64,000 bases of DNA from Pirellula sp. Its GTDB lineage: Bacteria > Planctomycetota > Planctomycetia > Pirellulales > Pirellulaceae. The position numbers were made by a program, and so were the translations under genes. Positions within the stretch are counted from its first letter, which is position 1. Each line of letters opens with the position of its first letter. Location: assembly GCA_031368325.1 (NCBI GenBank), contig JANMNR010000059.1, forward strand, positions 761 through 64,760. The letters run 5' to 3'. Under the pieces are notes generated by a model, which saw nothing but the letters and a program-made list of their open reading frames with translations, did not search any database and was not told the DNA's origin. Positions 817 through 37,805 of this stretch are shown here, piece after piece.

Positions 817-3800
817 ATGTCCGATTCTGAAGACCCTTTTAAAACGGTGCCGGCGGGGATTTCATGGATTGGTGATTACCAATTGCTGGGTGAAATCGGA
901 CGTGGCGGTATGGGGATTGTGTACATGGCCCAGCATCGGGATAGTTCGTCCCCCGTTGCCTTAAAGACGCTTGCAAGGTTTGAGCAGCATACCTTGCATC
1001 AATTCAAAAAAGAGTTTCACGTCTTGGCGGATTTGGCTCACACCAACTTAATTCGTTTGGGTGAGCTTGTCGCGACAGAGAATGAGCCTTTCTTTACGAT
1101 GGAGCTCATTCAGGGGGTGAGTTTCAATGAGTATGTTAGCAATACATTTGGCTCATCGACGGAGCTGCAAGGGAGCGATATCGTCAGTTTTTGTTTTGAT
1201 GAAGGGCGGTTGCGTCACGCGTTGCTGCAATCCATTGACGGCTTAAATGCTCTTCATCGCGCAGGAGGACTTCATCGCGACTTGAAACCGAGCAATGTGA
1301 TGGTGACGTTGGAGGGGCGAGTGGTCATCGTTGATTTCGGCTTGGCCGTCGAAACAGATCGCGGTGAGTACAACAATTCGCTCCAGGAGTTTGCGGGTAC
1401 GCCTATCTTCATGGCACCGGAACAAGCTGCCCGAAAACCCATCACGGCAGCTGCGGACTGGTATAGTTTGGGAGTCATGCTCTTTCATGCATTGACGGAT
1501 GCGTTTCCATTTGATTCCAGCTCGTACGAAAAACTGCAATCGCAAAAGCTGCTCGGCCCAAAGCACTCACCGCAGTCGATTGTTCCTGGGATTCCCGACG
1601 ATCTCAATGCACTGTGCATGGACTTGCTCAATCCGGACCCGGATCTTAGACCATCGGGCCAAGAAATCGCAAAGCGAATGAGCACAGCCGCAATACCGGT
1701 ACAAACCCCCTCGGTTTGGATCGGACGAGAGAGTCAGTTGTGCCAGCTCCATAACGAATGGGAAGCGACACGATCGGGATCGGGCCGGGTCGTATTCGTT
1801 ACAGGCAAAAGCGGGATGGGCAAATCCGCGTTAGTGAATCGCTTTCTAAGACTATTGATCGAGTCCAAACAGAATCCCGTCATTCTGCGAGGCCGTTGCT
1901 ATGAAAACGAAACGGTCACCTATCGAGGATTTGATAGTTTGGTGGATGCGTTGGTTCAATACCTACGCCACCTAACTTCCGACCGGGTCCAGCGTCTGCT
2001 CCCAATCGAATTGGATGCACTGTGTCAAATATTTCCGGTCCTGAATAATGTGCCCGCGATTGGGTCGAGTCGTTCGAGGCAACGCGTGTACTCTGATCCG
2101 CTCGAAGTTCGCCGACGCGGGGTAATGGGACTTCGCGAGTTACTGACTCGGCTGGCCCACTGGGAGCCCGTGGTACTGTTCATCGATGACTTACAATGGG
2201 GCGACGAGGATACTGCGATGATGTTTTGTCAGTTGACTCAAGCAGAATCGCTTCCATCCGCACTCATCATTGGCACCTTTCGTTCTGAGGACATAGAAGA
2301 CAATCGTTGTTTAAGTCTGATTCGTCGGGCGCCCGTTCCTCGCCCAGAGCACATTGCACTTGCCGAACAGCTGGAGCTCGTCGTGGATCGACTCAGCTTC
2401 GACGAAGCCGCTCAATTGGCATCCGAACTACTGGAGGGAAGCAACGCATCTAGCGAGTCTCTCATTGAACGCATCGTAAAAGAAACAGAGGGAGATCCGT
2501 ATTTCATTCGAGCGTTTGCAAGTTCCTTTATCGCTCAGGCAACAGATCCCGCATTCGCGTCTACCTCGACTTCAGTCAAAACACTGAAGGACGTCATTTG
2601 GGAAGAGGTAAGCAATTTACCTCAGGACTCACGAAGGGCGATTGAGCTCATTGCGGTGGCCGGGCGTCCCGTCGCTTGGGCTGCAATCCAGCAATTGGCC
2701 GGCTTCGAGCAAGACCCGACAACCGCTCTTCAGTCGATGCGCATCAAGCGAATAGTTCGTCAACTGAGCGATCGTGGCAACATCGAAACGTATCACGACA
2801 AAGTTCGCGAAACCGTTGCCGCTCGCTTGAGCACGTCGCAAATCAGCGATTGCTGTTCGCGGCTCGCGGGTTTTTTTGAGTTGAACCCCAGCAAAAGTGA
2901 GCCGGAGTTTTTGGGCGATCTTTATCGCAAATCGGACCAGTTGGCGAAAGCAGGCAAGGCTTATATCCAGGCAGGAAAGCGAGCGATGGAGACATTGGCT
3001 TTTTTCCGGGCGGCCAATCTATTTGCACTCGCAATCGAGATGCTGAATCCCAGTGGCAGGGAAGAATGTGAGCTAAGAGTCTTGTATGGAAGTGCGTTGG
3101 CGAATGCGTCTCGCAGCGCCGAGTCGGCATCTCAGTTCTTGCGAGCAGCTGAGTTAGCTTCTGAGTCAGATCGGCCCGATTGGCTTCAGCAAGCCGCGTT
3201 GCGATATCTGGTCAGCGGTCACGTCGACGCTGGCGTGAAAGCTTTGACGCGAGCGTTGGAGTCCGTCCATTTGACATGGCCTCGGACAACGCTTCGAGCG
3301 TTGATTGGCTTGATTGTTCGAGAAGCTCGCCTGCAAATTCGCGGTCTGCATTCCAACGCGGCTGAGGCAGTGGCTGAGAAACCGAATCCTAAACAATATG
3401 CTGCACCTGAGACGCCTGAGGATACACAAACGTCGCTCGGCCCATTTGGGCAACGGCTTACCCCGTTCCAACAACGCCGAATCAAGATCTGTTGGTCGGC
3501 AGCAGCTGGACTGAGTGTTGTGGATCCGATTCGTGGCTCGTACTTTATGACAGAACACTTGAGGCTCGCATTAGATTCGAAGGTTCCGCGTTATATGCTT
3601 CGCGGACTAGTGGCCTATGCCGGCCATGTTGCCATCGGTGGAAATAAAAGCCGTCGAGCCGTTCGACGCGTTCTCGTCGAAGCTCGCGAGGTCGCACGCA
3701 GGGAAAGCCATCCGTACTTTCGGGGCTCGCTTCTCAACGCCCGTGGCATTGCCGCCCTGTTGCGAGGTGAGTGGTCCCTGTGTCAACGTTGTTGTGATCG

Positions 3801-4635
3801 AGCGTTAAAGTTTTTGCATGACGAACGCTGCCGCGATGTTGCGTGGGAAATCAATACAGCAAGAACCTTTGCGTTGTGGGCAATACAGTATCAAGGCAAT
3901 CTTGCAGAGCTATCGCGGCGGCAACCCGAGTTGCTGCGCATCGCGAGAGAGAACAACGACTTGTACGCTTCGCTGAACTTCGGGACACAAGTCATGACCC
4001 ACCTGCAGCTTGCAATCGGCGAGCCCGACGAAGCTCGAGCGAGATTGAAAGAGGATCATGCCCGACTTTCGGATAAAGGTTTCTTTGTCCAGCATCACAA
4101 CCATCTTCTTGCAAACGCGTTCATCGAATTGTACGAGGGGAAAGGTGTTGAAGCACTGGCAGGCCTGACAGGGCAATGGCGAAACTACCAACGCTCCTTT
4201 CTGTCCAGAGTCCAGCAGATTCGAATCGATTACCTCCAAGTGCACTGCCGTGCGGCTTTGGCCGCAGCCCAAGTCGATCGCTCGAAACCTGAGTACTTGA
4301 AGATTGCCAGTCGTTATGTTTCCAAACTTCGAAGCGAGAAGATTGGATATGCAGTAGCTCTAGCGGAAGCGTACCACGCAAGCTGGCTTCATCAAAGCGG
4401 CGAATCCACGGCAGCTCGGATGCAACTCGAAAAGGCCATCGTCCTTTTGACGAAGGTCAGGATGCAATTGTTTTCGACGGCTTGTCAGCACATCTTATTG
4501 GAAACGTCCGGTCAGAGTTCGACGAGGAAAGGATGCGAAGTTCAGTACCGGTGGGAGTTGCTCGGCGTCTTGAAAAAGCATGAGCAAATGGCAAACGCAC
4601 TGCTCCCAGGTTTTGGAAGTGGACGGGTGCGTTAA
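817..4635 (+). CDS. Ser/Thr protein kinase fused to a STAND/AAA_16-type ATPase and a helical TPR-like C-terminus
   Basis: Hanks motifs GRGGMGIVY, VALK, HRDLKPSN, DFG, APE. Walker A GKSGMGKS (1804-1827) and Walker B VLFIDDLQW. Ala/Leu-rich helical C-terminal half; no transmembrane segment seen. Confidence 0.9.
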   Translation: MSDSEDPFKTVPAGISWIGDYQLLGEIGRGGMGIVYMAQHRDSSSPVALKTLARFEQHTLHQFKKEFHVLADLAHTNLIRLGELVATENEPFFTMELIQGVSFNEYVSNTFGSSTELQGSDIVSFCFDEGRLRHALLQSIDGLNALHRAGGLHRDLKPSNVMVTLEGRVVIVDFGLAVETDRGEYNNSLQEFAGTPIFMAPEQAARKPITAAADWYSLGVMLFHALTDAFPFDSSSYEKLQSQKLLGPKHSPQSIVPGIPDDLNALCMDLLNPDPDLRPSGQEIAKRMSTAAIPVQTPSVWIGRESQLCQLHNEWEATRSGSGRVVFVTGKSGMGKSALVNRFLRLLIESKQNPVILRGRCYENETVTYRGFDSLVDALVQYLRHLTSDRVQRLLPIELDALCQIFPVLNNVPAIGSSRSRQRVYSDPLEVRRRGVMGLRELLTRLAHWEPVVLFIDDLQWGDEDTAMMFCQLTQAESLPSALIIGTFRSEDIEDNRCLSLIRRAPVPRPEHIALAEQLELVVDRLSFDEAAQLASELLEGSNASSESLIERIVKETEGDPYFIRAFASSFIAQATDPAFASTSTSVKTLKDVIWEEVSNLPQDSRRAIELIAVAGRPVAWAAIQQLAGFEQDPTTALQSMRIKRIVRQLSDRGNIETYHDKVRETVAARLSTSQISDCCSRLAGFFELNPSKSEPEFLGDLYRKSDQLAKAGKAYIQAGKRAMETLAFFRAANLFALAIEMLNPSGREECELRVLYGSALANASRSAESASQFLRAAELASESDRPDWLQQAALRYLVSGHVDAGVKALTRALESVHLTWPRTTLRALIGLIVREARLQIRGLHSNAAEAVAEKPNPKQYAAPETPEDTQTSLGPFGQRLTPFQQRRIKICWSAAAGLSVVDPIRGSYFMTEHLRLALDSKVPRYMLRGLVAYAGHVAIGGNKSRRAVRRVLVEAREVARRESHPYFRGSLLNARGIAALLRGEWSLCQRCCDRALKFLHDERCRDVAWEINTARTFALWAIQYQGNLAELSRRQPELLRIARENNDLYASLNFGTQVMTHLQLAIGEPDEARARLKEDHARLSDKGFFVQHHNHLLANAFIELYEGKGVEALAGLTGQWRNYQRSFLSRVQQIRIDYLQVHCRAALAAAQVDRSKPEYLKIASRYVSKLRSEKIGYAVALAEAYHASWLHQSGESTAARMQLEKAIVLLTKVRMQLFSTACQHILLETSGQSSTRKGCEVQYRWELLGVLKKHEQMANALLPGFGSGRVR

Positions 4636-4808
4636 CCGGTTTTAACCCCTCGGAGGAAGTATGCCGAAGCGTAGATTAAAAAAACTTTAACCGAAACGAG
4701 TTTTTTCGAAAAATTTCTGTCGCGCTTTGGAGTCTTTCGTCAGTAGTGTTTGCACGGTAAAGGCCTGAATCGCCTCAAATAAGTATTCCTGCCTCAATTC
4801 CTCCCACT

Positions 4809-31800: not shown

Positions 31801-34800
31801 AGATCGTGGATCGATTCACGGACACCGTCAACGACACGGACACTGGACGTTATCAATTGGTCGTTTACAAGTTCCGCAAGTCCAGTTCATCGGACATGAG
31901 AGATGATTTGAAGGGATTCGGCGGAACGGATGTTATCAATGGCGGGCCAGGTGATAGTTTTGCCATGGACTATGTTTTAGGTGCAGGTCCAACGATGAAC
32001 GAAGGCAGCACGTTCACTCGCACCGTGACGCTCGATGACCGCGCGGCCTCATCCTGGACTGGCAGCACCGTCGACTACGGAGATGGAACCGGTATTCAGC
32101 CACTCAGTGTATCTTCGAATGGGGAGTTTTTGTTGAGTCATGTTTGGGCGGACGACAACCTCTATACCATCACGGTGAACATAGTTAACGACATAGGGAA
32201 GACACTGACCAAGACTCTGGCAGTCAGTGTCGCCAACGTTGCCCCGACGGCGGCGATCAGCGGCTCGACAGCGATCATCTACGGTGAGGCGGCAACCGTC
32301 AGCCTCAGTGGAGCCTTTGATCCATCGACTGCGGACAGTACAGCCGGATTGCGTTTTGCTTTTGCTTTAAGCGCTGCCGACCTGATTTCGGTGACTTATG
32401 CCAGCGCCGACGCTTCAAGTGATTCCACGCTAACGGGACTGTCAGCCGGGACATACACGGTCTATGCACGGGTGATGGACCAGGATAACGGCTTCACACA
32501 GTACTCGACGACGATCCTTGTGCTGCCGCGACTGCTGGAGATTACGGCGGCCGCAAAGACCAAGATCTACGGGGCGGCGGATCCAGCGTTTACTTACACG
32601 TTTAGCGCGTTGTTCAATGGTGATACGTCAAGTGTGTTTACCGGTTCGCTCAGCCGCTTGGCTGGAGAAAACGTGAACAACTATGACATCAGCCAAGGCA
32701 CGTTGTCGGCTGGTTCGAACTACAACATCGCTTACGCTGGTGCGAACTTGAGCATTACACCGAGAAGTTTGGCTGTGACAGCGGCAGACAGGACCAAGAT
32801 CTACGGGGACTCCGATCCAACGTTGACTTACACGTCTGGTGCGTTGTTCAATGGTGACACTTCAAGCGTTTTAACCGGTTCGCTAAACCGCTTGGGTGGC
32901 GAGACTGTGAACAGCTATGCCATCAGCCAAGGCACGTTGTCGGCTGGTTCGAACTACACCATCGCTTACGCTAGTGCGAACTTGAGCATTACACCACGCA
33001 GTCTGGCGGTGACAGCGGAAGACAGGACCAAGATCTATGGCAATGCCGATCCAACGTTGACTTACACGTCTGGTGCGTTGTTCAATGGTGACACTTCAAG
33101 CGTCTTTACCGGTTCGCTAAGCCGCGTGGCTGGCGAAAATGTGAACAGCTATGCCATCAGTCAAGGTACGGTGTCGGCCGGTTTGAACTACACCATCGCT
33201 TACGCTGGTGCGAACATGAGCATTACACCACGCAGTCTAGCGGTGACAGCGGCAGACAGGACCAAGATCTACGGGGACTCCGATCCAGCGTTGACTTACA
33301 CGTTTGGCGCGTTGTTCAATAATGACTCGTCAAGCGTGTTTACCGGTTCGCTAAGCCGCTTGGATGGCGAAAACGTGACCAGCTATGCCATCAACCAAGG
33401 AAGCTTGAGCGCTGGTAGCAACTACGCGATTAGCTATGTCCCGGCCGCTTTAACCATCTCGGCGGCACCGCTGACTATCGCGGCAGATGCCAAGACAAAG
33501 AATTTTGGGCAAGCCGATCCCACCTTCACTTACCAGGTTAGCGGCTTAAAGTTCGGCGAAACGCCGGCGACCGTTGTCACTGGCTCATTAACTCGTCAGC
33601 CTGGCGAAACTGCCGGAGATTACAGTATTCTGCAAGGTTCACTGGCCGTTGGTAGCAACTACTCGCTAGCCTACATTGGAAACACCTTGACGATTATCGG
33701 GTCGATCAATAATCCACCCTCTGTTTCGATCAGTACACCCGTCGATGGGTTCATGAATGTTGCGTCGACCTTCACCTTCACGGCCACTGACCCCGATGCA
33801 GCGGATCAGACAGGGGTCTATACCTACACGATCCACTGGGGTAACGGAATCTCTACAACGGTGACAGGTTCAACGACGCGGAGTATCACGTACACCTATC
33901 CAGGCGTGGCAGCCGATGGCAGCTTCGTGATCACCGCCACAGTAACCGATCCTCGTGGTGCTGTAAGTGTGGCGACCACAAGCGCCTTCGTCGTTGGCGG
34001 TTGGACGTTGATGGCCGATCCGCTTCGTCCCTCGGATGCCATTTTGGTCCTTGTCGGTTCACAAGGACCAGACACGATCAAAGTGAAGACCAAGGACGAC
34101 GACTACTATAAGGTTACGATCCGAGATCGCGACGACGACATTCGGCGTCGGGGAACTGTTTACGGCGATGTCCGGCGCATTCTTGTTTTTGCACATGGAG
34201 GCAACGACCGAGTGACGATCGATGATGATGTCGAGTTCACAACCGAGATATGGGGCGGGGCTGGCAACGACGAAATCAAGGGTGGAAGCGGCAACGACAT
34301 CCTGATGGGAGAAGCTGGTGATGACAATCTCTGGGGTGGGGATGGACGAGACATCGTGATTGGTGGAACAGGCGCCGATCGAATTCATGGAGATGCCCAC
34401 GACGACATCCTCATTGCAGGCTTTACGGCCTTCGAATCCGAGTTCAATCAATGGGCACCGAGCGCATTCTTGCCAGCGACCCGTTTGACATTGAATCAAC
34501 AACGCGCGGCGTTGGAATCCATCATGGCTGAATGGGCCAGTCCGCGGTCGTACACAGATCGCAGAAACAATATTCGCGGAGCCGGAACAGGGACTCGCCT
34601 GAACGGAAACAACTTCTTTAGGGTGAGCGATACTGTGATGACCAACAATACGGTGTTTGACGACGCTTCCGTCGATCAATTGTGGGGAGACAACGGCACG
34701 GACTGGTTCTTTGCCAATTTGAATAGCGACCCCGGTAGCGTCCTGGACCAGATCAAGGATCGTTCGGGCAACGAATCACAGGAAGATATTGACCGCTGGT

Positions 34801-34805
34801 GGTGA
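4809..34805 (+). CDS. Giant (~9,970-9,998 aa) multidomain secreted/surface protein (adhesin/RTX/protease-like); true start possibly ATG 4893 or ATG 5016
   Basis: One stop-free frame of 29,997 nt. GGAG precedes ATG 4893. FEQLETRVLLA export motif, followed by ordered recognisable repeat and domain families. Confidence 0.92.
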   Translation: MYLPFELSRRELICSCSSPKSACAPESIMFRQLRRILLKAIKHPLAKVVNQDLEKGRIIGGEVNSRWKRMSAQVSSPFKIQNRAKFRRTLIDQFIRSRRPLKPVFEQLETRVLLATNIGAVRPDTGIANDLLSHYLDTQPLSSGDANPEITFHYGFSATSNNGVGLQGFNDYALAGDLSGLGFDQSIVVRPFAGALQWLGDTDRDTTQEYHFRFGLADMTPLIADMNGDGIDDVVAVDTTTASNLLEWFVHYGVPGSSPFPTDDSTLSVDATFSFGVDADHGAAVGGLADVPRVGDINGDGRADVLAVRRGASTKDWFISHAPVSYPNNTATTLGISQTISGYGANAAVPVVGDWDNDGDDNIGAIDEGSPSTWNLDTNGGGAAEITKQFGLNGDQYIVGRWADVLWDGSSDSNWSTAANWSGDSVPSAGQNVVIDQPVSAVTITSSGTANAGTVTSTENLSITGGTFDIAGSIEAPVFSVNGGNLIVNGTLTSPTLSLNTGTLTWTAAGQVTDLTIDVGTGTVRNIGGGYIKGFRYNVATSLTVDFDADIILSGDISGAGQLIKNGTGRLQLTNNNPYTGLTTINAGEIYLTNNGLLGSTAAGTVINGGAALRLAAGKTNADPLIMQGVNPTLVTDSGSAATQSGSISLNTINSASFTTDASGSLFVSSVISGTGGLTKQGTGTLTLSGANTYPGNTAIVAGTLVIGTNNAINPITSVELGSSTTNGTLDLAGRTQTLTGLTVAAGAVAANQIVGSSSTTSNSVLNYNGVGLGTFSGTIQNTVGSGNRLVSLNVNSGNLSLTGTSSFSGGTSIATGAVARMFTGSALGSGTITVAAGGFVGLNSGITVSNAVVLLGASGTGALANTTGTNTLTGQLTLSGNSGILVNPATTLTVTGNINLSSNELAVTSNGTAVIAGTISGSGLLQKSGSGTLTLTGANTYSGTTTINAGTLLVGGSNAMPSTSALIVGSGGTFDGNASGGFGSNIGSLAGSGTVLLGNAPLSMGWDNTSTTFSGSISRSGQLIKEGSGVFTLSGTLLNPGNMTINSGTVRLGAAERIADDRFVAIGNSGATLDLNGFNETIGGMSGGSGSLVTLGSGTLSTGGLNLSNSFFGEISGSGGFTKTGTGTFTLERTNTFSGTTTISGGTLQVGSGGTTGSLGTGAVVNDATLVYDLSSSIHVTNAISGTGTLHLMSGAGVTQSTSIAVASLAVEAAGTINLSSSNDVDIVALRTTVGNISFEDVDGFAVRSVNGVAGVSSSNGSPSLVAFAGDISVDNTSAANDLEGGVGFNMNITLFGAGAKFTVASAANVSGAGAQITADRMDFVGTLAATGTVTLQPNVAGQLVNLGSIGDATANTLELSDAELDRISASVVRIGRSNSGAIAISQAISPSGTLHLISGAGVSQSAGITVTNLAVVAAGNIALNMPVNDVNLLAASSSGGFINFADADDLTVDTVNGISGISTTAGIVNLSSRGDLTINNTSAMNDVSSSGASGFTYSVNMTVDAASGKLTIANGANVQSTGGSHSYRANKMNLAGTIGAAGQTVELAPLQNNQAVNLGSTTDILFNTLELSDAELDRITADVLIVGLGSATGGITISQSISRPAATNLTLTTGGASSIVFGAAGSLNTNGGDVTLTTATGAGSGGVDGNSGTTNITANALAITSGAGGVGGTGAYLTTAVSSVTASASNAAIRLAESDSVTIVAPGLSGSLIQLESGTFLSGANNLIPDTADVDVRFAAGLNLNNFSEQITGLLVYGGPSSGALVATGTGSLTLGANGISYGFGSNGEVGATISGNLNLGGSTREINVPDGLAANDLTISATIGNGGLLKTGAGTVTLSGANTYSGSTGINAGTLRAGAANTFSANSAVTLADVAGATLDLNNFSNTIFSLAGGGTAGGNVTLGSGTLTTGGSSAVTSFAGVISGTGGLTVAGLDNSYLTLIGNNTYNGTTTINSGQTYLQAGTGGTTGSIGTGPVVVGNDAGLFINRSDSINFANAVSGSGSLTLTSTGGSVTQSAAITGLYALQVLASTGITLTHSGNSFGFLELTNSTSGTITASASAITSGLAVNQQTSNDVNVSATAGDLVLSAFGGGIQSVGNVTLSATGGISSSAWGGRLTGSGNVALLADSDANGIGSVVFAANGTGDPTNNYKVNGSSITLRGADIDIDSSATVGVSAPTVSTFATGLTNPHGLALDAAGNLYVASYQANKISKVTPAGVVSDYVTGLSGPFWVVFDATGNMYISNSGNHTITKRTPGGVNSTFATSGNGLNTPNGMAFDATGNLYVANGGNNTITKIVFSSPGVFGSASTFASGGMNNPDGMSFDASGNLYVTNYNNHTVSKITPAGAVSTFINSGLTNPAGIVFDSSGTMYVASINGNSIIKVTFASPGVLGTTSTFVTTTGPAGLVFDSAGNLVVANYTAGNISKVSQQLTSQMTLQSSMPSRPMSLGGANNAVAGINLTDAELSRIFTTSSGTVTIGDAAQAGPITFFSATPATTAGANTTITSIGQINLDSTGGTALNANGGAMTVAGSTMNLSNASSVGSGSLSVTSGGTLKGTGTVGGDLSNAAIVAPGNSPGIVTINGNYTQSSFGSLEIEIQGTNAAVPDFDQLIVNGTISLAGSLNVVYLSGYVAPNGSSFAVIQNDGVDAISGTFAGLAEGSTFDVGATTFSITYAGGDGNDMVLTALSQKYLVTTVSDSGAGSLRQAILNANANAGADVITFNIAGAGPHTIAVTSGLPTIIETVILDGATQPGYSGTPIIELNGANAGAGVSGLTIMSSGSTIRGLVINQFGSSGVVISGSGASSNIIAGNYIGTDSSGQAAPEIYESFAYTSGTDITGKTGGQSFNGAWGDYSSGDNGFTVQNGLTYPGLTVSGGAAGDLPGLYNDGNSRYYDATNYASLVSRGEFWFSFLYNVNSGYFSVNPFVAFTGINNVGRMELSDGGGIYLTGGAWSGDTTEGATVPLGQNVWIVGKLTVTSAADDGANDRMEMWVNPTPGIVPDNGTRVIDATFAFSAPANSGVIIQTNSTPNIVLDEYRVSALYPGTDTGNATGIAIQNGATNTTIGGTTSGARNLISGNKGPGVDSSGAGTGTDIQGNYFGVNAAGTTPLPNYLSGNNAIDVIGQGTIGGLTTTPGTAAGNLFGGTVTLTSASTVLGNTFGLQADGTTILGVAVPSTQASSGIRSEASGSTIGGAAVGSRNVFAGHGSANFNGNSYLDIMFGGTNTVQGNYFGTDITGLLNRNSGDVRGIQTVFGATNNVVGGPTAAARNVIVGGTRGFETYEPGNTFEGNYVGIAADGVTAYGMSQVGVFIRDNNNIIRRNVISGSSAVTGLALADTTTGTIVAGNFIGTDASGTLARPNLIGISVGTSGNTIGGPNAVDRNIISGNADFGLRFDFGATNNTVQGNYVGVQVDGVSSLLNSNGAINVASGATLKGSGSFTGNIVNQGSIAPGNSPGIITINGNYSQSGSSTLAIELAGTNAATPEFDQLIVNGNVSLAGTLNVSLLSGFVPSNGNSFRIIDNDGTDAITGTFSGLAQGATLMVGGRAFYVSYIGGTGNDLVLTAVNSLTAGALAPPPATEGQAFSNFTIFHFTDITPTASVSDYTVTVITGDGEVTLTNQANPTNVQVVASQGGGFDVKLSYTYALQLSNGAFRVTVVNAGGNSISASIAASVPGTLDTNFGTGGVTTTPFFGNESFRDSPSNLGSALQQPDGKIIVVGLSYNAVGGHSLALARHNPDGTLDSSFGTGGKVQFDVPGAFFSVANNAALQPDGKIVVAGNLLARFNTDGSFDATFAGGIGWVSVPQFQYGYASQVRVQPGDGKIVVVGNGADGRSFAVSRYNTNGSLDTNFGTNGTALTAIGCVSEVVNAMAIQANGAIIVGGHSFQTGLNIALAAMARFDSSGALDTSFGTNGIVITNFGDVTNYQWVQTALSLADGKILIGGTNGNSGDVVARYNTDGSLDTNFGTNGFASSPGLINYGVYSLALQTDGSILAGSTAGFTGSFAVSRFSGNGVLDTSFGTNGTASSVPGEGAVTNGLVVQADGKIIAVGGAVGPTSTIDFGLARYNSDGQLDTSFGTNGQVRTDLLRVNYPLTGQATSVVVQSDGKTLVAGTETGFNRVAVTRYNADGTLDNSFGTSGIFKLDVTGLGLYPAGYAASGVEISSMTLQADGRIVVAGKLIASYGGNFEAFVARINTNGTLDTSFSTDGVVSVGGVPGQPWDFHAAAKSVVTLADGTIVIAGEGRPYNDRVFGKLFAFNSDGSLKTSFGSGGQVVTEFTGQTSTSIFNSLAAQADGKLIAVGQSLHPGAWKTALARYNSDGSPDASFGTAGQVQSDGSVFGAGVQWFIPESVVVQSDGSLLVSGYSDTTTGQFATLARYTSSGVLDTTFGTNGAVISTMTGSFKDVTIQANGRIVATSGLKVARFSSSGVLETSFGTNGITTVPGTGQFNSVTLQPDGNIVAAGYINGANGSNFAVARISAGGYNVADANIVTTTTDGIDALDGIVSLREAITIANARNGVDQIAFNITGSGIFTISPASALPTITEAVILDGTTQPGYTSTPVIELSGANAGAGVNGLTITSSGSTIRGLVINRFASSGILISGSSTSSNVIAGNYIGTDVTGLLDLGNGLNGVDVIGAPNNTIGGNTAADRNIISGNNLNGVKVLLADGNTIAGNYVGLGANGTTVVANTNNGIYTVFASNTTIGGSTAGARNAVSGNDASGIALDTGSGSIISGNYVGLTADGTAARMNSGAGISVAYMTGATIGGTTANERNVVVSNGGIGVGPGSSGVQVIGNYIGTDATGSVGLATGGTGVSVYFSTNVTVGGSTAETRNVILQGAGSYGMFLQNSTGIRIKGNYIGVDVTGNSTSASSKGIHLAESSAIIGTDGDGIDDATEGNVIAGASINIDMPALGTGTVIAGNKIGTNAAGTAILGTSSLGIRDESLGSNRIGSNADGTSDDLERNIIAGASSAGIYVSAPNTVIAGNYIGTNAAGTAALANSTGVFIQGSNVTVGGTTSASRNVISGNTGNGVEVIGPNNTVSGNYIGVDSSGNLRLANLGSGIATGNAATGTVIGGFTATAGTGSGNVISGNASHGISLGGGSTNYIIRGNVIGLGADGSTIISNLSGIYGMAPGTIIGGDDDDDGALDGVVKSRNVISGNELLEIWVEDTRSLNLKIQGNYIGTDRTGMSARVFPVGNNSGVGLRWTADVLIGGTTPGAGNVISGHRLSQIALSGLGGSDPAWSTNNKIQGDIIGLAADGVTDLTSAFLALIDVSFGMHGNTIGGTTSGARNIIAGSSGIRVDGVTTSDNVIVGNYVGTDITGTLARGGDYGILIGGGATNTTIGGSTAGARNLISGNAQGLTIGAGSTNTLVAGNYIGTNAAGTAAIGNLQFGIAITGSNNTIGGTTIGARNVISGNGSGAGNGIGLAIYSSSGNVVQGNFIGTDHTGLLPIANDGTGIRIAGDDSDPANEAHDNVIGGTAPGAGNVISGNAAGISIEGNGAYNNTVAANIIGLGVDGSTIVGNGTGVAFANSHHNTIGGTTAAARNIISGNGGGISINYGADHNTISGNYIGTGSTGMIAKPNGMGILVNGPFTTIGGTAAGAGNVISGNSTDGILMIDGNTLVAGNIIGLNAAGNAALGNGRYGVAIEGSASANTVGGTTVAARNVISGNAQDGIRISSSNALSGTVSWWKADGTANDSVGGSNGTLQNGATYATGLSGQAFSLDGTNDYVQFNRPAAVTDFTIDSWVYIDPVTNVGERVVVGWDDYQYVGNGSRQAIVLKSSAPTYGGVNAGQGRPSFGILNGATFDRISAPEALTAGWHHLAGSRTGTSLRLYVDGVQAATMTSTISMAMQPNDSLVIGRSSSHPGLANPAHFAGLVDETALFSRALTATEIATIHEIGGASKSRNTIQGNYIGTNASGTADLGNGMDGIRVSSPANRIGGTTAGAGNVISGNNNAGLWINSGANNTQVYGNLIGTNASGSEAIGNTYYGILVASSSNQIGGSTASQRNVVSGTIQNNGNDNVTGAGIAIYDAGFITVTGNVVQGNYIGTDATGTSSIANFTSGVTVQTAVAGNRNTIGGSNPGEGNVISGNGLTGGLGAGIYVNSMASPGFSESNIVAILGNRIGTNATGSVALPNRSSGIYFYQSPGNVVGGSSTLDNGRLSGAGNLISGNLGNGIDVINGGSNSDATVIQGNFIGTDLTGTQAIGNGNIGVAIGSSNTILGGTVAGLRNLISGNSHGVGLGVGGTNNQVIGNYIGTDVSGLAAIPNRFFGVWIGTNGNSIGGASVASGNVIANNGQVGLKLEGTTGNNGTYLNNVYFGNQILAIDAGPIGRSLNDDPDSDGVLNYPVITSTQIVGNDLIVVGTMPAGKTVELYISAPTSNGDGQGRTRLASVLDDSTADENNVAGQFRIRIPIGNDVNHGTPLTALTLGSISGGSTSEFSDIKIAGEAGSSLAPQISLGATTVSITSGNAITVDGSFYDPDSVSWEATVNYGDGTGVQPLNLNADNTFRLQHTYIATGSYIVTVVIRDASLVSSTKTLGVIVQNEAPTANFNEFTITSPANEGQLVTLKGRFEDTAGTHTATIQWGDGLTSIVPITPGSREFTATHVYVDDTNLQGTATPSDVYRVLVTITDETGANNTTPVGLFLEEIRNALPSALNVTVSSTSISEGLSVSLSGLFADPGLADVHKVRINWGDGNFSLITLPVGDREFTFGDFPELTHVYVDDQNTGADEYTITVELADDDERQRPAVVTQVISVANAVPSAVSLNLAQTTILESGLVSLSGSFADLGQFDTHQVSVDWGDGTVPTVLSLAEGVTSFGSLSHQYLDNPSVGGSFSIVVRVSDNDSPSLFGSATASIFVQNVAPVLAPFVLSSNGNAINEGDEVTISGSYTDVSSLDVHTVRVNWGDGVSTLATVNLMTRTFTATHRYLDNNSFPLLVLPTLPLAINGVLPYYGISVTLDDQEGGIDTRIAQQAVLNVVPTVTIESGTGNANPNFINLAAGVNDPGVADTFTHAGAFRWSAEVVGVPGTLQVGSAATFMVDRTGYADRLWRVSLSVADDEGGVGSFMTTLLVGTNGDDVGVNRLIVTDATFNQSGTTNLLALALDGDDTIDASGVTDPSLSVTLVGGQGIDNLFGGAGDDVYVLAQGNDNANVPNDDVMTPVESGNDRYRLRPNSELTVIDRFGNNTLDFGLADFGITFDLSLISTTMPEIQDVLPVPLVAPLHTVKTQGAFSKLEGSSHGDNLTGASNASVFGGAGNDSFTAKAGTTGASFNGGADNDILMVSATGIANLDFNGDAGADTLVNLGVVTGLTFDGGADADILQNEGSILASLNFGGDAGADMLLNTGSIADLTFIGGADNDIFVNNGSATTTLDFNGDADILLSGFGSIGTLSFGGDSGADLFVNLGTITDLAFNGGADNDIFVNNGSAVSSLEFGGDLDVLLSGVGTIIGELSFNGDAGIDTLINRGSIGELTFDGGADADILQNSGTIVRELSFEGDAGIDTLVNLGSVGALTFDGGADADVLQNFGTVIGNLSFEGDMGADVLTNLGSLGSLTFSGGADSDVLQNNGTVLGALVFGGDAGVDTLLNQGLIGDLTFAGGADADVLRNFSGGAIESLAFNGDTGADLLVNLSAITTLTFLGGADADILQNVGDIGLLNFGGDAGADLLVNSGAVTTLTFNGGADSDILINSGTVLAQLSFGGDAGLDTLVNNGIVFGLTFSGGADADILQNTGTIQNTLLFNGDAGVDTLTNSGQVLALTFNGGADSDVLMNTGTVLDLLTFTGDLGADLLTNLGTISDLTFNGGADADVLTNNGTILDDLMFTGDVGADLLINRGSVGDLTFNGGADNDVLLNLSSVGTLTFDGGADNDVLQNNGSDITSLTFIGGADNDVFINNGSSIGTLTFDGGADNDVLVSNGSLIGNLEFTGDSGVPVLDRKSNDTLILRGSGSGSPTSRVQFHGGYGVDAFENNATGFASIIFNGGLDSDALLNNASGLASLDFNGDAGADVFVNHGGAIVSLEFDGGADNDILINDGVSLVNLTFEGGADSDTLINSGELLQTLTFNGGADADVLLNSGGQLGILQFDGGADADVLINDGPVIGRLEMNGDAGKDRLWNRKGGIQIGSIVFVGDAGVDTLINDAAGIATLTFTGGADADVLQNNGTVANLSFDGGADADVLVNAGFAGTLTFDGGADADILLNRGPLVDILDFSGDAGVDTLFNLGAVTSLTFEGGADADVLQNNANVETLSFFGDVNLSSGQASSDDGIDTLVNNGSVQTLLFEGGADNDVFQNNATVTSLTFGGGADNDTLVNNGSAITTLNFNGDAGIDTLINNGSGIATLNFDGGADADSLRVEGRQIGNVIFNGGSGGDSFAYNAFGTSTSSIRFYGGAGNDFFAMRGIASTVIFDGGIDDDGVLVVGSGAMTLTGGDGDDFYRFMSNPLADVTLTDAYSGTTDVSKDTLDFSSFTGGPANLDLRLVNVFQPQGTGQLRVKLVDPMAIENVVGTPFADTIYGNARSNYIGGADFDDAFSGPVAAPRGVTQWVYLDFDSKTNTGVVDAITGLADAGEYVYTPTERELIRQRVESIYRGPNSGAPWFDVRVVTAMVDIPSTFLSTNNFVTIYFNQTPATGRPGGLASEVDPGNVNLGGSAAVQINGLLGGVINNNDSLETIEGDFNAYKGDTVEVSQAEVGATKPAGTSYNFVRLSSKVAAHELAHLLGLRHQDSFGPIGFGVHDVPGGGSYKPIYTGPSGGVETIDHLIGSPASIGSTRFNDLNDLFFGEREAIKLAFANSNPLQTTTTNVGNNNDLLTAAPLSMVTLAVPNTLSSGQNATKDLYVQISSVIGQISLDFGTPRRSKSDWYSFTGRAGELINIDVLSNSVGRFGTGLNGAMTSDDFIDSIVRVYNSNGQLVKYYDGLAENDDVFEPTDSSLIDLLLPADGTYYIEVDSFHKFGDPLGNASNPLSPLNPANPNNILAYQEIVDRFTDTVNDTDTGRYQLVVYKFRKSSSSDMRDDLKGFGGTDVINGGPGDSFAMDYVLGAGPTMNEGSTFTRTVTLDDRAASSWTGSTVDYGDGTGIQPLSVSSNGEFLLSHVWADDNLYTITVNIVNDIGKTLTKTLAVSVANVAPTAAISGSTAIIYGEAATVSLSGAFDPSTADSTAGLRFAFALSAADLISVTYASADASSDSTLTGLSAGTYTVYARVMDQDNGFTQYSTTILVLPRLLEITAAAKTKIYGAADPAFTYTFSALFNGDTSSVFTGSLSRLAGENVNNYDISQGTLSAGSNYNIAYAGANLSITPRSLAVTAADRTKIYGDSDPTLTYTSGALFNGDTSSVLTGSLNRLGGETVNSYAISQGTLSAGSNYTIAYASANLSITPRSLAVTAEDRTKIYGNADPTLTYTSGALFNGDTSSVFTGSLSRVAGENVNSYAISQGTVSAGLNYTIAYAGANMSITPRSLAVTAADRTKIYGDSDPALTYTFGALFNNDSSSVFTGSLSRLDGENVTSYAINQGSLSAGSNYAISYVPAALTISAAPLTIAADAKTKNFGQADPTFTYQVSGLKFGETPATVVTGSLTRQPGETAGDYSILQGSLAVGSNYSLAYIGNTLTIIGSINNPPSVSISTPVDGFMNVASTFTFTATDPDAADQTGVYTYTIHWGNGISTTVTGSTTRSITYTYPGVAADGSFVITATVTDPRGAVSVATTSAFVVGGWTLMADPLRPSDAILVLVGSQGPDTIKVKTKDDDYYKVTIRDRDDDIRRRGTVYGDVRRILVFAHGGNDRVTIDDDVEFTTEIWGGAGNDEIKGGSGNDILMGEAGDDNLWGGDGRDIVIGGTGADRIHGDAHDDILIAGFTAFESEFNQWAPSAFLPATRLTLNQQRAALESIMAEWASPRSYTDRRNNIRGAGTGTRLNGNNFFRVSDTVMTNNTVFDDASVDQLWGDNGTDWFFANLNSDPGSVLDQIKDRSGNESQEDIDRWW
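5121..5153 (+). other. Planctomycete extracellular N-terminal motif (LEPRxLL / Planc_extracel type)
   Basis: Translation FEQLETRVLLA after an Arg/Lys-rich leader. Confidence 0.85.
5328..6020 (+). repeat. FG-GAP/VCBS-like Ca-binding repeats
   Basis: DMNGDGIDD (5481), DINGDGRAD (5694), DWDNDGDDN (5868), with xFGx motifs between them. Confidence 0.7.
6495..10690 (+). repeat. Autotransporter passenger-associated beta-strand repeats (PATR-type), about 7 copies
   Basis: LxKxGxGxLTLxGxNTYxGxTTIxAGTL motifs at about 6495, 6840, 7581, 7878, 8172, 10300 and 10602. Confidence 0.85.
11352..12101 (+). repeat. NHL-type repeats x6 (predicted 6-bladed beta-propeller)
   Basis: Six copies of GLxxPxGxxFDxxGNLYVxNxxxxxIxK. 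Confidence 0.85.
12888..15100 (+). repeat. CSLREA-like module plus parallel beta-helix repeats (GNYIGTD / IGGxTxxARNVISGN), block 1
   Basis: VTTVSDSGAGSLRQAI followed by GNYIG/RNxISGN repeats. Confidence 0.75.
15840..18260 (+). repeat. Delta-60-type repeats x14 (predicted two 7-bladed propellers)
   Basis: Fourteen QxDGKI[IV]-type motifs alternating with ARYNxDGxLDxxFGxxG. Confidence 0.85.
18290..23900 (+). repeat. CSLREA module plus long parallel beta-helix repeat block 2
   Basis: VTTTTDGIDALDGIVSLREAI followed by many GNYIGT...IGG...RNVISGN units. Confidence 0.8.
21880..22550 (+). other. LamG/concanavalin A-like lectin domain inserted in the beta-helix
   Basis: SWWKADGTANDSVG...QAFSLDG...WHHLAG...LYVDG...FAGLVDETALFSRAL. 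Confidence 0.85.
24220..26060 (+). repeat. Tandem PKD/Ig-like domains (about 5-6)
   Basis: VNYGDG, IQWGDG, INWGDG, VDWGDG and VNWGDG motifs, each followed by HxY. Confidence 0.85.
26619..30176 (+). repeat. About 57 tandem 19-23 aa RTX-like Gly/Asp repeats (xGGADxDxLxN... / xGDAGxDxLxN...LxF)
   Basis: Units counted by eye from the translation; consensus F-x-G-[G/D]-A-[D/G]-x-D-x-L-x-N-x-G-x(3-5)-L-x-F. Confidence 0.9.
30486..31230 (+). other. Zinc metallopeptidase-like domain (HExxHxxGxxH)
   Basis: HELAHLLGLRH at 30999-31031, preceded by QWVYLDFD and an upstream GGLA segment. Confidence 0.75.
31440..31703 (+). other. Pre-peptidase C-terminal (PPC)-like domain
   Basis: DWYSFTGRAGELINIDV...DSIVRVYNSNG...LPADGTYYIEV. 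Confidence 0.75.
32529..33698 (+). repeat. Five tandem 234-bp (78 aa) MBG-type repeats
   Basis: The TK(I/N) anchor recurs at 32559, 32793, 33027, 33261 and 33495. An exact 58-nt match lies at 32812 and 33046. Confidence 0.92.
34190..34805 (+). repeat. C-terminal canonical RTX nonapeptides and putative C-terminal secretion tail
   Basis: GGAGNDEIK-GGSGNDILM-GEAGDDNLW-GGDGRDIVI-GGTGADRIH-GDAHDDILI; tail DDASVDQLWGDNGTDWFF...DIDRWW. Confidence 0.8.
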
Positions 34806-34826
34806 TTTAACGTTTAGAATGGTGAG

Positions 34827-37805
34827 ATGTCATTTGATTCGCGAGCTAGGAAACCAGTTATGAAAAGTAAGCCTCAGGTCAAAGGTTCCTTTAGCCATGA
34901 TGGCGTCGTTGGGAATATCACTCGCGAACTGCCTGCACAAGAAGACCGGGGGGCAGCTGAGACCCTAGCGCCGGATGCAGATGCGACCAAGAATGGGACT
35001 CAGCATAGCGCGCCCGCAATGGAACAAGCGACGGTGGATTTGGTAGCCAGCCCAGTCGACGGAAACGCTATGACGCAATTCGGTGCCGCGGATCAAACCA
35101 AACAGGCCGAACTCGAAGTTGATCCTTCTGCGACAATTGATGTCCCAAGTGGGGTAATGGATGGTTTGCTCAGTGGTTCGGCGGTTTCCAGTGGAAAGGG
35201 TTCGCTTCCCAACAAAGACAGCGGACTAAAGGTCGTACCCTCAACGATCGGTTCGATGATTGGAAACTATGAAGTCCTGTCCGTTCTTGGAAAAGGCGGG
35301 ATGGGTATCGTTTACAAGGCTAGGCATCGAACGTTGAATCGTATTGTTGCCTTGAAGATGATTTTGCATGGACTGCATGGTGGATCGACGCTCGTTCAAC
35401 GGTTTCTTGCGGAGGCCCGATCCGTTGCGGCCCTTCAGCATCCTGGGATTGTCCAGATCTTTGAGATCGCAGAACATGAGGGTCTTCCCTATTTTTCGTT
35501 GGAGTATGTCGAGGGAGAGGATTTGCATTCCTCGCTCAAGGGTCAGCCGTGGGGTGCAAAGCCAGCTGCCGAGTTGGTGGCCACCTTATGTGACGCCATG
35601 CAATATGCGCATGATCATCAAATTTTGCACCGCGACATCAAGCCCGCCAATATTCTGTTGGATGCGGAAAAACGTCCCAAAATCTCGGACTTTGGACTCG
35701 CAAAGAAACTGGATACTGGCGATCAAGTAACGCGTGACGGATCGGTCATGGGTACGCCCAGCTACATGCCTCCTGAACAAGCACGTGGGGACACTGCCTT
35801 GATTTCGCCCCGTTCGGATGTGTACTCGCTGGGGGCGGTTCTCTATCAAATGCTTACGGGTAGAGCTCCGTTTGTATCCGACAGCATGATGGACACACTG
35901 GTCCAAGTGATCAATCGCGACCCGGTTCAGCCTCGCGAATTGCAGCCAGGAGTACCGATCGACTTGGAAACGATTTGTGTCAAGGCACTTCAAAAAGAGC
36001 CGGTCAATCGTTATCAAAGTTGTGCCGAGCTCGCTGCCGATTTGCGCCGCTATATCAATGGCGAGCCGATCTTGGCTAGACCGATCAGCCATTGGGAACG
36101 TCTAACCAGATGGTGCCGTCGCAATCCGAAGATCGCATGGCCGACGGCAGTTGCTGGGTTCTTTGTGATTGCCACAGCGGGTGTGTCGTTGGGTGCTTGG
36201 CGCATGTCAGCGGCACAAGCGATCGCGATCGCCGAGGAACGCGATGAAGCAAAAGAGCAGCGAATAGAGGCTGACAAGCAGCGAGACGAAGCGGACAAAC
36301 AACGCAATGAAGCGGACAAACAACGACTCATCGCAAATCAACAGCAAGCGTTGGCAGAAGAAAATGCGGAGCTGGCGACCAAGCAAGCCAATCTCGCTCT
36401 TCAAAACATCCAATTCGTTGTAACGGACGTCGACACCAAGCTCACAACACAACCTGGCTCGAGCGAAATTCGTATCGCCATCATGGAGGCGGTTTCCAAA
36501 AAATGGGACGAACTCGATATAGGCATGACAGGCGGCGTTCGCGGCAAAGCCATTCCCACTTTAATGGCGGTGAGACATCGAATCGCAATGACTCTCTCGC
36601 AATTGGATCGGGTGGTTGAAGCCGACCGAGAATTCACAAAGCTGGAGGTCATGGCTCGTGAACGGATTGTGGTCAAAGAGGGAACGGACGCTTCTAGAAT
36701 CAATTTGGCAAAGATCTTGACCGCTTCGTCAAATATTCAAAGGCAACTAAAGAACGCCAAAGGAACCGAAAGCAAACTGCTGGAAGCTCGTGAAATCACT
36801 CGCGACATCATCAAAAATCCAAAGCCTGAGGGACCCCCGACAGATGCCAACCAGGTACTGCTGCTGCTCGGAGCCATGAATCAAAACCTAGGGACCGAGT
36901 ATCTGCGACAGGGGCGAATCGCAGACACGGCCGCCGTTTTCGGCGAGGCCATTGAAACCAATCGAGGGGTTCTCAAGAACATTGAATCAACAAAAGAGTT
37001 CGCCGAGTTAGATGCAGCGAAACAAGATGGCCAAACGTTGGATGTCAAGAGTACCATCGACACGCTCACACTTGGCCTAGCCTATGTTTTGATGCGGCAA
37101 GGTAAGTCCGATGAGTCGATGATCAAGTACGATGCCGCGATCGCTGGTCGCAGGGCTGCATTCGAGCGCAACCCTGAACTTCTGCGTTTGAAGTCGGAGC
37201 TTGCCGGTTTTTCGGCGTTGTATGGACGATCGTTGCTATGGCTCGATCGAGTCGGCCCTGCTGAGCCTGTTTTAAGTGAGGCGGTCAAATTGTGTGACGA
37301 AGCCTACAAAGCGGACCCAGAGAGAGCGGACGGAAAGAGAGCCATCGCGTTTGCGCTTTATAACTTGGGCACTCTTCGAGACTTGCAAGGTCGGAAAGAC
37401 GAAGCGCTAGGGCACTTCGAGCGCGCTCGGGGTGTCCTCGCCGAGTTGTACAAGGTATCCGCCGACGAAAAGAATGGTTATCTGTTGTTGCAATCGGAAG
37501 CAAGAGTTGGGAACGTCAAAGTCGCAAAAGAACTGAGCGATAAACTTGGTGCCGTAACATTACAGAATCAAGAACTTCATTTAGAGCGAGCATGCGGATT
37601 GGCACAATTGGTACGCATCGCGGAGGGACCTGAAAAGTCCAAGCTTATGAACGAAGCGTTGGAGACCCTGGAACGGTCCGTCGCGGAGGGTTATCAAGAT
37701 CCATTCCGAATTTCAACGGATGTCGATCTAAGGCCGCTTCGGGACGAGCCCCGTTTCGCCGCCATCATCCAAAAGCTAAAGACTGGCGTACCAGCGAAAC
37801 AGTAA
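34827..37805 (+). CDS. Membrane-spanning Ser/Thr protein kinase with coiled coil and TPR-like C-terminus
   Basis: GKGGMGIVY, VALK, HRDIKPAN, DFG, MPPEQ. Hydrophobic helix IAWPTAVAGFFVIATAGVSLGAW. C-terminal DVDLRPLRDEPRF tail. Starts 21 nt after the giant ORF stop. Confidence 0.92.
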   Translation: MSFDSRARKPVMKSKPQVKGSFSHDGVVGNITRELPAQEDRGAAETLAPDADATKNGTQHSAPAMEQATVDLVASPVDGNAMTQFGAADQTKQAELEVDPSATIDVPSGVMDGLLSGSAVSSGKGSLPNKDSGLKVVPSTIGSMIGNYEVLSVLGKGGMGIVYKARHRTLNRIVALKMILHGLHGGSTLVQRFLAEARSVAALQHPGIVQIFEIAEHEGLPYFSLEYVEGEDLHSSLKGQPWGAKPAAELVATLCDAMQYAHDHQILHRDIKPANILLDAEKRPKISDFGLAKKLDTGDQVTRDGSVMGTPSYMPPEQARGDTALISPRSDVYSLGAVLYQMLTGRAPFVSDSMMDTLVQVINRDPVQPRELQPGVPIDLETICVKALQKEPVNRYQSCAELAADLRRYINGEPILARPISHWERLTRWCRRNPKIAWPTAVAGFFVIATAGVSLGAWRMSAAQAIAIAEERDEAKEQRIEADKQRDEADKQRNEADKQRLIANQQQALAEENAELATKQANLALQNIQFVVTDVDTKLTTQPGSSEIRIAIMEAVSKKWDELDIGMTGGVRGKAIPTLMAVRHRIAMTLSQLDRVVEADREFTKLEVMARERIVVKEGTDASRINLAKILTASSNIQRQLKNAKGTESKLLEAREITRDIIKNPKPEGPPTDANQVLLLLGAMNQNLGTEYLRQGRIADTAAVFGEAIETNRGVLKNIESTKEFAELDAAKQDGQTLDVKSTIDTLTLGLAYVLMRQGKSDESMIKYDAAIAGRRAAFERNPELLRLKSELAGFSALYGRSLLWLDRVGPAEPVLSEAVKLCDEAYKADPERADGKRAIAFALYNLGTLRDLQGRKDEALGHFERARGVLAELYKVSADEKNGYLLLQSEARVGNVKVAKELSDKLGAVTLQNQELHLERACGLAQLVRIAEGPEKSKLMNEALETLERSVAEGYQDPFRISTDVDLRPLRDEPRFAAIIQKLKTGVPAKQ
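36246..36329 (+). repeat. 21-bp tandem repeat encoding EA(D/K)(K/E)QR(D/N/I) heptads
   Basis: gaggctgacaagcagcgagac / gaagcggacaaacaacgcaat / gaagcggacaaacaacgactc. Confidence 0.85.

Follow-up and report, generated by a model that had tools for sequence, protein, structure and literature searches.

The present analysis concerns a 64,000-nucleotide stretch of DNA (the window) from Pirellula sp. (GenBank assembly GCA_031368325.1, contig JANMNR010000059.1, positions 761 to 64,760 of the forward strand), in which the gene of a giant surface protein is followed after 21 nt by the gene of a membrane-bound Hanks-type Ser/Thr kinase, designated K2. Comparison of gene contexts, copy numbers and phylogenies showed that, at the level of sequence, the giant and K2 form a conserved, orientation-independent, 1:1 two-gene module, whose members have been inherited, duplicated and rearranged together. 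A first-pass annotation of the window had described three genes on the + strand, i.e. the giant bracketed by two different kinases, and had proposed that they constitute either a contact or adhesion signalling unit or a self/non-self module. The list of open reading frames (ORFs) confirmed this layout (817-4635, the upstream kinase K1; 4809-34805, the giant; 34827-37805, K2; all + strand) as well as the 21-nt distance between the stop codon of the giant and the start of K2. As a unit, the giant and the downstream membrane TPR kinase stood up to comparison, while a bracket of two kinases did not prove to be the rule. The features that make up the module are as follows:

5016-34805, + strand: giant LExRxLL surface protein, 9929 aa if ATG 5016, one of two likely starts, is used (ORF, Pfam, N-terminal comparison)
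34806-34826, + strand: giant-K2 junction, 21 nt (sequence)
34827-37805, + strand: K2, receptor-type Hanks Ser/Thr kinase, 992 aa (Pfam/NCBIfam, transmembrane segment, AlphaFold2 model, synteny)

The source genome (G000) is a planctomycete metagenome-assembled genome (MAG) of 7.45 Mb in 807 contigs, where the window lies on contig C479. ORFs were called by a script from stop to stop, and the majority of the genomes analysed were MAGs. Full-length homologues of K2 were gathered in three sets, namely 40 relatives, 400 genomes of the same order and a scan of named genomes, and their flanks were inspected; the scan was performed with an alignment of 6 tail sequences, since a 17-sequence tail alignment was too divergent. 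This revealed that 26 of 31 informative loci of the K2 family are linked to a giant of the same, zincin class, which is recognisable by its PKD domains, Gly/Asp repeats, HExxHxxGxxH motif and PPC (pre-peptidase C-terminal) domain. In 18 cases the kinase gene is co-directional with the giant and placed just 3' of it (the complete giants include proteins of 7293, 6757, 7966 and 5539 aa), six homologues are divergent at the giant's 5' end (among these giants, three have 7217, 7221 and 14,639 aa and another has at least 8450 aa), one is convergent with the giant, and one (G346) is located two genes upstream of it.

The same linkage was observed when loci were ascertained through the giant only. 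The zincin block was detected in 46 of 401 genomes of the family (about 11%), some complete assemblies among them, and 24 new loci were examined, 22 of which were informative. The pair is present in the complete assemblies G660 and G757 and in the near-complete G463. A Hanks-type kinase was adjacent in 21 of these 22, either 3' and co-directional (16 loci), convergent (2) or 5' and co-directional (3, the gap being 4 nt in one case). In each of the nine giant-found kinases that were checked, a single transmembrane segment lies about 40-50 residues past the kinase domain, and the tail measures about 500 aa; TPR repeats were recognised in the tails of five of the six scanned against Pfam. Linkage is kept in four gene orientations: 3' co-directional, divergent, convergent and 5' co-directional.

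The two genes also co-occur at the level of whole genomes. Among 41 relatives, a zincin-class giant was found in 11. Full-length K2 homologues were found in 8 genomes, every one of which falls within those 11, so that none of the 30 giant-less relatives carries such a kinase (Fisher p = 1.7e-6). Copy numbers of giant and kinase are equal (2/2 in G000, 3/3 in G023). The source genome contains 77 places with a kinase domain, of which two, on contigs C479 and C61, have a K2-type tail; the C61 kinase, the only paralogue of the K2 tail in this genome (37% identity), likewise follows a giant gene immediately on its 3' side, at a distance of 69 nt. Correspondingly, the combination of Gly/Asp repeats, zincin block and C-terminal module is present in just two giants of this genome, both beside a K2-type kinase, and absent from the other five.

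Maximum-likelihood trees were constructed for 18 kinases and for the zincin and PPC blocks of their partner giants, and 11 clades recur in both, while no conflict between the two has support. The paralogous pairs (two in G000, three in G023) sort into differing clades, identically in both trees: the C61 pair clusters with that of G428, and the pair on contig C556 of G023 with the divergently arranged pairs of G002 and G001. This indicates that duplication or transfer involved the pair as a whole, and that at least one inversion occurred without separating the two genes. As a background, no other kinase domain was detected in 155 kb downstream of K2 at 16 loci. Chance adjacency was ruled out by the two counts (26/31 and 21/22, against a background of roughly 1-3%) together with the congruence of the trees. 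The synteny comparison that the first-pass annotation had suggested therefore came out in favour of the giant and K2.

Within the window the two genes are very probably co-transcribed, as judged from the 21-nt gap, the common strand and the lack of a terminator. The annotation had pointed to a separate promoter or terminator between 34805 and 34827 as evidence to be looked for against its proposal; the junction contains no terminator, no promoter consensus and no stable hairpin, and its predicted fold is no better than that of shuffled sequences (z = +1.19). In homologous co-directional pairs the kinase's first ATG was located between -8 and 91 nt past the stop codon of the giant in 12 of 17 cases.

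K2 consists of the following parts:

aa 1-147: disordered N-terminus
aa 148-396, nt 35268-36014, + strand: Pkinase domain (166.6 bits, gathering score 31.7)
aa 436-458, nt 36132-36200, + strand: single transmembrane helix (hydropathy peak)
nt 36204-37802, + strand: stalk helix and TPR superhelix, a tail of about 530 aa (Pfam TPR/TPR_END, AlphaFold2)

With a profile score above the gathering threshold and the full set of intact catalytic motifs (GKGGMG 155-160, VALKM 174-178, HRDIKPAN 268-275, DFGLA 288-292, SYMPPE 312-317), K2 belongs to the Hanks-type kinases (PF00069). Its layout, one transmembrane segment after the kinase and a folded C-terminal domain, is that of receptor-type eukaryotic-like Ser/Thr kinases, the topology being predicted: because the chain passes the membrane once, the C-terminal part of about 530 aa should lie outside the cytoplasm. 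The AlphaFold2 model of this ectodomain (aa 460-992; 21-sequence alignment; mean pLDDT, the predicted local distance difference test score, 88.7) shows an 80-residue helix leaving the membrane and bearing three EADKQR repeats, followed by about 20 helices that build a TPR superhelix. The best Foldseek matches were the TPR domains of LGN/Pins (TM-score about 0.6 on the target) and those of OGT/SPY; both are scaffolds that wrap around extended peptide segments. A profile search of the PDB returned generic TPRs only. The model thus suggests a stalk helix carrying a TPR superhelix of the peptide-binding type. An assignment of K2 to the PASTA kinases of the PknB/Stk1 type was considered and rejected, as NF033483 scored 302.9 bits, below its cut-off of 450, and covered aa 146-428 only, and no PASTA domain is present.

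The frame of the giant is open from TTG 4809 to TGA 34803-34805 (9998 codons). ATG 5016 (9929 aa) or ATG 4893 (9970 aa) is a more likely start than TTG 4809, by analogy with ten homologues in which LExRxLLA comes after a basic N-terminal stretch. The protein is composed, in this order, of FG-GAP, PATR, NHL (NHL/SGL), beta-helix, DUF5122 propellers, a further beta-helix with LamG, PKD, Gly/Asp repeats, a zincin-like block, PPC, five MBG domains and a PKD/RTX C-terminus, within which the following segments were delimited:

5130-5150, + strand: LETRVLL (the LExRxLLA motif), after the basic stretch (N-terminal comparison)
23706-32618, + strand: conserved core (aa 6300-9270, numbered from the TTG) of PKD region, Gly/Asp tract, zincin-like block and PPC
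30999-31031, + strand: HELAHLLGLRH, metzincin-type HExxHxxGxxH (aa 8731-8741)
31437-31709, + strand: PPC beta-sandwich (Pfam PF04151, 34.4 bits)
32619-33683, + strand: five MBG_2 domains (Pfam MBG_2, 321.7 bits over 5 stretches)
33684-34805, + strand: C-terminal PKD/Big domains, RTX nonapeptide repeats and the end '...DWFF...DIDRWW' (Pfam, C-terminal alignment)

LETRVLL corresponds to aa 108-114 in the TTG numbering, 39 aa past ATG 5016, and a basic stretch with LExRxLLA occurs in 10 of the 11 homologous giants whose N-terminus is visible. By this motif the protein belongs among the LEPR-XLL proteins; the NCBIfam model LEPR-XLL returned no hit. The core is common to all co-directional partner giants (35-82% identity) and includes a Gly/Asp ('GGADxD') repeat tract of about 1300 aa with no Pfam match, while N-terminal modules and the MBG insertion vary among the partners. 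The MBG_2 insertion is peculiar to the giant of the window, with no match in the partner giants of G022 and G006, and the PKD/RTX end is found in about half of the partner giants; in the window the last 373 aa give a HemolysinCabind score of 61.7 bits. In all 13 partner giants compared, the four metal-binding and catalytic residues of HExxHxxGxxH are invariant. Peptidase_M10 matched the zincin block with 17.7 bits, under the cut-off of 24, no sequence relative of the block was found in the PDB, and the AlphaFold2 model of the zincin and PPC regions was weak (pLDDT 60.8), with structure matches confined to the PPC part (collagenase collagen-binding/PPC domains in Foldseek, TM-score about 0.75 on the target). 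The protease assignment thus depends on the invariant motif, and we regard the giant as a putative metzincin, i.e. as protease-like. The approximately 5,900 aa of N-terminal modules encoded by positions 4809-23705 (PATR, NHL, DUF5122 and an extra beta-helix) have no counterpart in the giants of G022 and G006. The giant ORF of G022 is probably truncated, as it begins in the middle of a beta-helix, 315 nt from the end of its contig.

On the 5' side of the giant the window contains the following elements:

817-4635, + strand: K1, cytoplasmic Hanks-type Ser/Thr kinase with an AAA_16 STAND NTPase, 1272 aa (Pfam)
4636-5015, no strand assigned: AT-rich spacer that separates the K1 stop from the likely giant start at ATG 4893 or ATG 5016, 257-380 nt long (sequence)

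K1 had been described as a cytoplasmic protein of kinase, STAND and TPR parts. The first two were borne out by Pfam (Pkinase, aa 21-286, 157.2 bits; AAA_16 STAND NTPase, aa 301-484, 92.4 bits against a cut-off of 32.6, with the Walker A sequence GKSGMGKS at aa 330-337), and all catalytic motifs of the kinase were found (GRGGMG, VALK, HRDLKPSN, DFG, APE). A cytoplasmic location follows from the lack of any hydrophobic or transmembrane segment. The C-terminal part of about 790 aa is mostly helical and gave no Pfam TPR hit, the TPR part of the description not being confirmed by Pfam. A partial match to the NCBIfam model TOMM_kin_cyc (aa 284-725) scored 156.6 bits, the cut-off being 705.75. By its combination of Pkinase and P-loop STAND NTPase, K1 is a kinase of the PknK-like type, sharing with PknK-type proteins (Pkinase, AAA_16 and MalT-like repeats) the succession of Pkinase and AAA_16 STAND NTPase, the long helical C-terminus and the cytoplasmic location; the likeness is one of architecture only, and the relatives of K1 have no link to a giant. 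Within the helical region, aa 986-1036 (window 3772-3924) matched deaminase models of the AID/APOBEC-like kind weakly and below threshold (SNAD4, E = 1.4e-4; NAD1; NAD2); these hits are probably noise. The spacer contains no consensus sigma-70 site and no strong terminator (fold z = -0.21); its length leaves room for a separate promoter of the giant.

Homologues of the K1 tail were found in four other genomes (42, 36, 33 and 30% identity). None of the three whose context could be read precedes a giant, and they adjoin unrelated genes, the outcome that the first-pass annotation had itself set down as speaking against its unit. No close K1 homologue is present in G022 and G006, the genomes with the closest giant-K2 pair. 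As judged from these contexts, K1 is not a partner of the giant but a neighbour outside the conserved module. A kinase in this position was nevertheless frequent at first sight, being present at 4 of the 5 complete co-directional giants of the first set:

This window: K1
G423: Pkinase-TIR-DUF4062 with nSTAND1-WD40
G023, contig C556: Pkinase-TM-WD40 (TM, transmembrane segment)
G023, contig C222: divergent transmembrane kinase

Orthology was sought among these four kinases and none was found; their catalytic domains are 26-39% identical, the level of random paralogues, and their architectures differ. Bracketing by a second kinase was rejected as a core feature when the proportion fell from 4/5 to 2/14 among giants found independently of kinases (G530 and G620; P about 0.06 at a background of 3%, marginal alone). 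The second 5' kinase is therefore best described as an occasional neighbour of assorted types outside the core, possibly mildly enriched. In the 7.45 Mb of the source genome about 77-86 kinase domains were counted, and ORFs that reach 2500 aa number just 7, so that kinases on both flanks of a giant would be improbable by chance, yet only the K2 side is systematic. In G423 (contig C42, locus L069, 9359-18164) the genes for Pkinase-TIR_2-DUF4062 (879 aa) and nSTAND1-WD40 (2066 aa) form a co-directional pair just upstream of a zincin-class giant of 6757 aa; domains in this combination are typically found in NTPase-based conflict or defence systems.

The explanation that we favour, with moderate confidence, is that the giant and K2 make up a module in which K2 serves its giant as a cognate receptor kinase, reading or controlling the state of this protein. 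In such a mechanism the periplasmic TPR superhelix would bind an extended segment or a processed fragment of the giant, and binding would report the export, anchoring or load state of the giant across the membrane; K2 would then phosphorylate cytoplasmic targets and so adjust how this very costly protein is produced or deployed, or how the cell responds to attachment. Several observations weigh against this explanation. Five loci of the K2 family have no giant in view (G011, G326, G372, G426 and contig C67 of G239), and one giant has no kinase (G594, contig C8). The tails of distant K2 homologues are only 22-27% identical, which makes the limits of the family soft, a kinase with a transmembrane segment and TPRs is a common planctomycete architecture, and most of the genomes used were MAGs with fragmented giants. 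Moreover, linkage is equally compatible with a K2 that senses an external cue and merely regulates the giant. We give preference to a specific physical relationship between K2 and the giant because of the convergent arrangements and the paralogue-specific co-inheritance. These same observations bear on a purely regulatory linkage, in which K2 would respond to an unrelated cue and control transcription of the giant with no contact between the proteins: divergent genes with a shared promoter region and operonic genes are indeed typical of regulator-target pairs, and the tails diverge fast while the giant core holds 35-50% identity, but the convergent pairs (G239, contig C55; G668; G685) stay linked without a common promoter, and strict 1:1 copies, with each paralogous kinase accompanying its own giant lineage, exceed what simple regulation needs. 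We consider it improbable. By analogy with known adhesins, the K2 stalk and TPRs could instead tether or chaperone the giant, with the kinase governing its retention or release in an inside-out manner. The C-terminal RTX repeats and the invariant protease-like motif that could free the giant, the long rigid stalk and protein-binding TPRs of K2, the 1:1 pairing and congruent trees that suggest a specific physical partner, and the lack of adjacent dedicated secretion genes would all suit this role as an accessory in export or anchoring. It is, however, unlikely as a separate account, given that neither LapD nor LapG homology was detected and TPR domains are generic; it also overlaps the receptor-kinase explanation and is inseparable from it in silico.

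A three-gene unit, in which the cytoplasmic STAND kinase K1 would provide input or regulation and K2 would be the sensor in the membrane, would account for the second kinase found immediately 5' in the window, in G423, at both G023 loci (C556 and C222) and in G620, where kinase density is otherwise low. The unrelated surroundings of K1 homologues and their absence from G022 and G006, the unlike architectures and random-paralogue identities of the 5' kinases, their marginal frequency in the replication set and the spacer between K1 and the giant all argue against it, and we hold it to be about as improbable as the regulatory linkage. Least probable by far is a self/non-self or polymorphic-toxin-like module, or an adjacency that arose by chance or by hitch-hiking within a variable island. 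In its favour, the N-terminal additions and extreme C-termini of the giants vary among clades; against this stand the adjacency statistics and the trees, as well as the lack of any toxin domain, immunity-like gene or third conserved gene at the loci, and the self/non-self idea of the first-pass annotation found no support. A broader form of the receptor-kinase explanation is rather doubtful and is put forward tentatively: in Pirellulaceae, every zincin-class LExRxLL surface fibre of 2,000-15,000 aa might be read physically by the periplasmic TPR superhelix of its own membrane kinase, which would signal by cytoplasmic phosphorylation. The cue could be the export of the fibre, its Ca2+-dependent folding, its cleavage by the putative metalloprotease within it, or mechanical load on attachment. 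If true, such kinases would form a so far undescribed class coupled to giant proteins, and bacteria would possess a route of adhesion or mechano-signalling that relies on a Hanks kinase.

The receptor Hanks kinases PknB/Stk1 (PASTA) and PknD (beta-propeller) share with K2 an N-terminal cytoplasmic Pkinase domain with all catalytic motifs, one transmembrane segment and an extracytoplasmic repeat domain that should bind a ligand. In contrast to them, the ectodomain of K2 is a stalk with a TPR superhelix, neither PASTA nor NHL, and its candidate ligand is a giant protein encoded in cis rather than a cell-wall fragment. The nearest functional analogy is offered by Pseudomonas fluorescens, where LapD, a c-di-GMP (cyclic di-GMP) receptor, and LapG control the giant RTX adhesin LapA. 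Both systems combine a very large surface protein with Ca2+-binding repeats and a dedicated signalling protein of the inner membrane whose output domain is periplasmic, a protease step is plausible in both, and the giant of the window has the C-terminal RTX nonapeptide repeats expected of an RTX adhesin. The analogy is one of logic only, with no kinship of sequences or domains: the transducer is here a Ser/Thr kinase with TPRs, and the protease-like motif lies within the giant itself. No adjacent export genes of a type I secretion system (ATP-binding cassette, membrane fusion and outer membrane proteins) and no LapD or LapG homologues were found at the loci, the genome-wide complement not having been searched. 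Nor was the layout of a polymorphic toxin with its immunity gene seen at the giant, which ends in PKD/Big and RTX and is followed by the gene of the 992-aa kinase.

The LEPR-XLL giants belong to the 'giant genes' of Planctomycetes (Reva and Tummler 2008, cited in PMC6461901). Planctomycete LEPR-XLL giants share with the protein analysed here the basic N-terminus with LExRxLLA and a composition of beta-helix, PKD, propeller and RTX-like modules over 5,000-15,000 aa; the zincin subclass is set apart from them by the invariant zincin-like and PPC block and by the kinase partner, neither of which the five other giants of the source genome possess. All components are of known kinds (a receptor Hanks kinase, a LEPR-XLL giant, a PknK-like STAND kinase), and their coupling appears to be undescribed, no prior description of a link between a kinase family and a giant class having been found in the literature searched. 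The giant genes and the large Ser/Thr kinase sets of planctomycetes are long-standing puzzles with hardly any functional assignments. The 1:1 pairing provides the kinase with a candidate ligand or target and the giant with a candidate signalling or control partner, both of them testable, and experiments are narrowed by the fact that just one of the two flanking kinases matters in the window.

Kinases of planctomycetes are often paired with a sigma factor of the extracytoplasmic function (ECF) type. The first-pass annotation had noted that none is adjacent to either kinase of the window; the flanking genes were identified, none of them encodes an ECF sigma factor, and the flanking gaps of only 306 nt (before K1) and 481 nt (after K2) leave no room for one. 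The immediate neighbours are:

1-510: ScpA fragment, upstream neighbour of K1
38287-40656: CehA/McbA-family metallohydrolase, 789 aa, downstream neighbour of K2 (NF038032, 273.8 bits)

The metallohydrolase is not retained beside the giant-K2 pair at any other locus. Further genes of the window encode a sulfatase and an acyl-CoA dehydrogenase-like protein (Pfam/NCBIfam).

A third conserved gene (phosphatase, FHA protein or secretion component) was sought across the loci, and none was found beyond an ORF of about 238 aa with a weak PEP-CTERM-like C-terminus, located 0.5-1.2 kb after the kinase (L090 1188-1901; also L045, L048, L049 and L053) and confined to one subclade, in which the giants end in ...WMTDWLDD. 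In two divergent-type loci (G118, contig C46, L092 6601-9198; G378, contig C10) the gene after the giant of about 7,220 aa encodes a fusion of a beta-lactamase-fold domain with NamZ, an exo-beta-N-acetylmuramidase. In G424 (contig C206, L073 395-1786) the K2 homologue is directly followed by an ORF of 464 aa that represents a copy of the TPR tail lacking the kinase domain (34% identity to aa 150-526 of the K2 tail), and the giant is broken into three consecutive ORFs (917, 943 and 1267 aa). The K2 homologue of G426 (contig C1, L076 328-2814), with no giant nearby, is split by a frameshift into parts of 829 and 172 aa, which reflects either a decaying orphan or an error of long-read assembly. 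The largest ORF observed was the 14,639-aa open frame of G002 (contig C13, L019/L085), which belongs to the same giant class and is divergent from a K2-like kinase gene. In the source genome, non-zincin giants (contig C663, 5651-16176; contig C690, 19547-38269) were also found near a kinase, one arrangement being divergent with a spacing of 822 nt and the other having the two genes 2 kb apart with one intervening gene; proximity of kinases and giants may extend past the zincin class.

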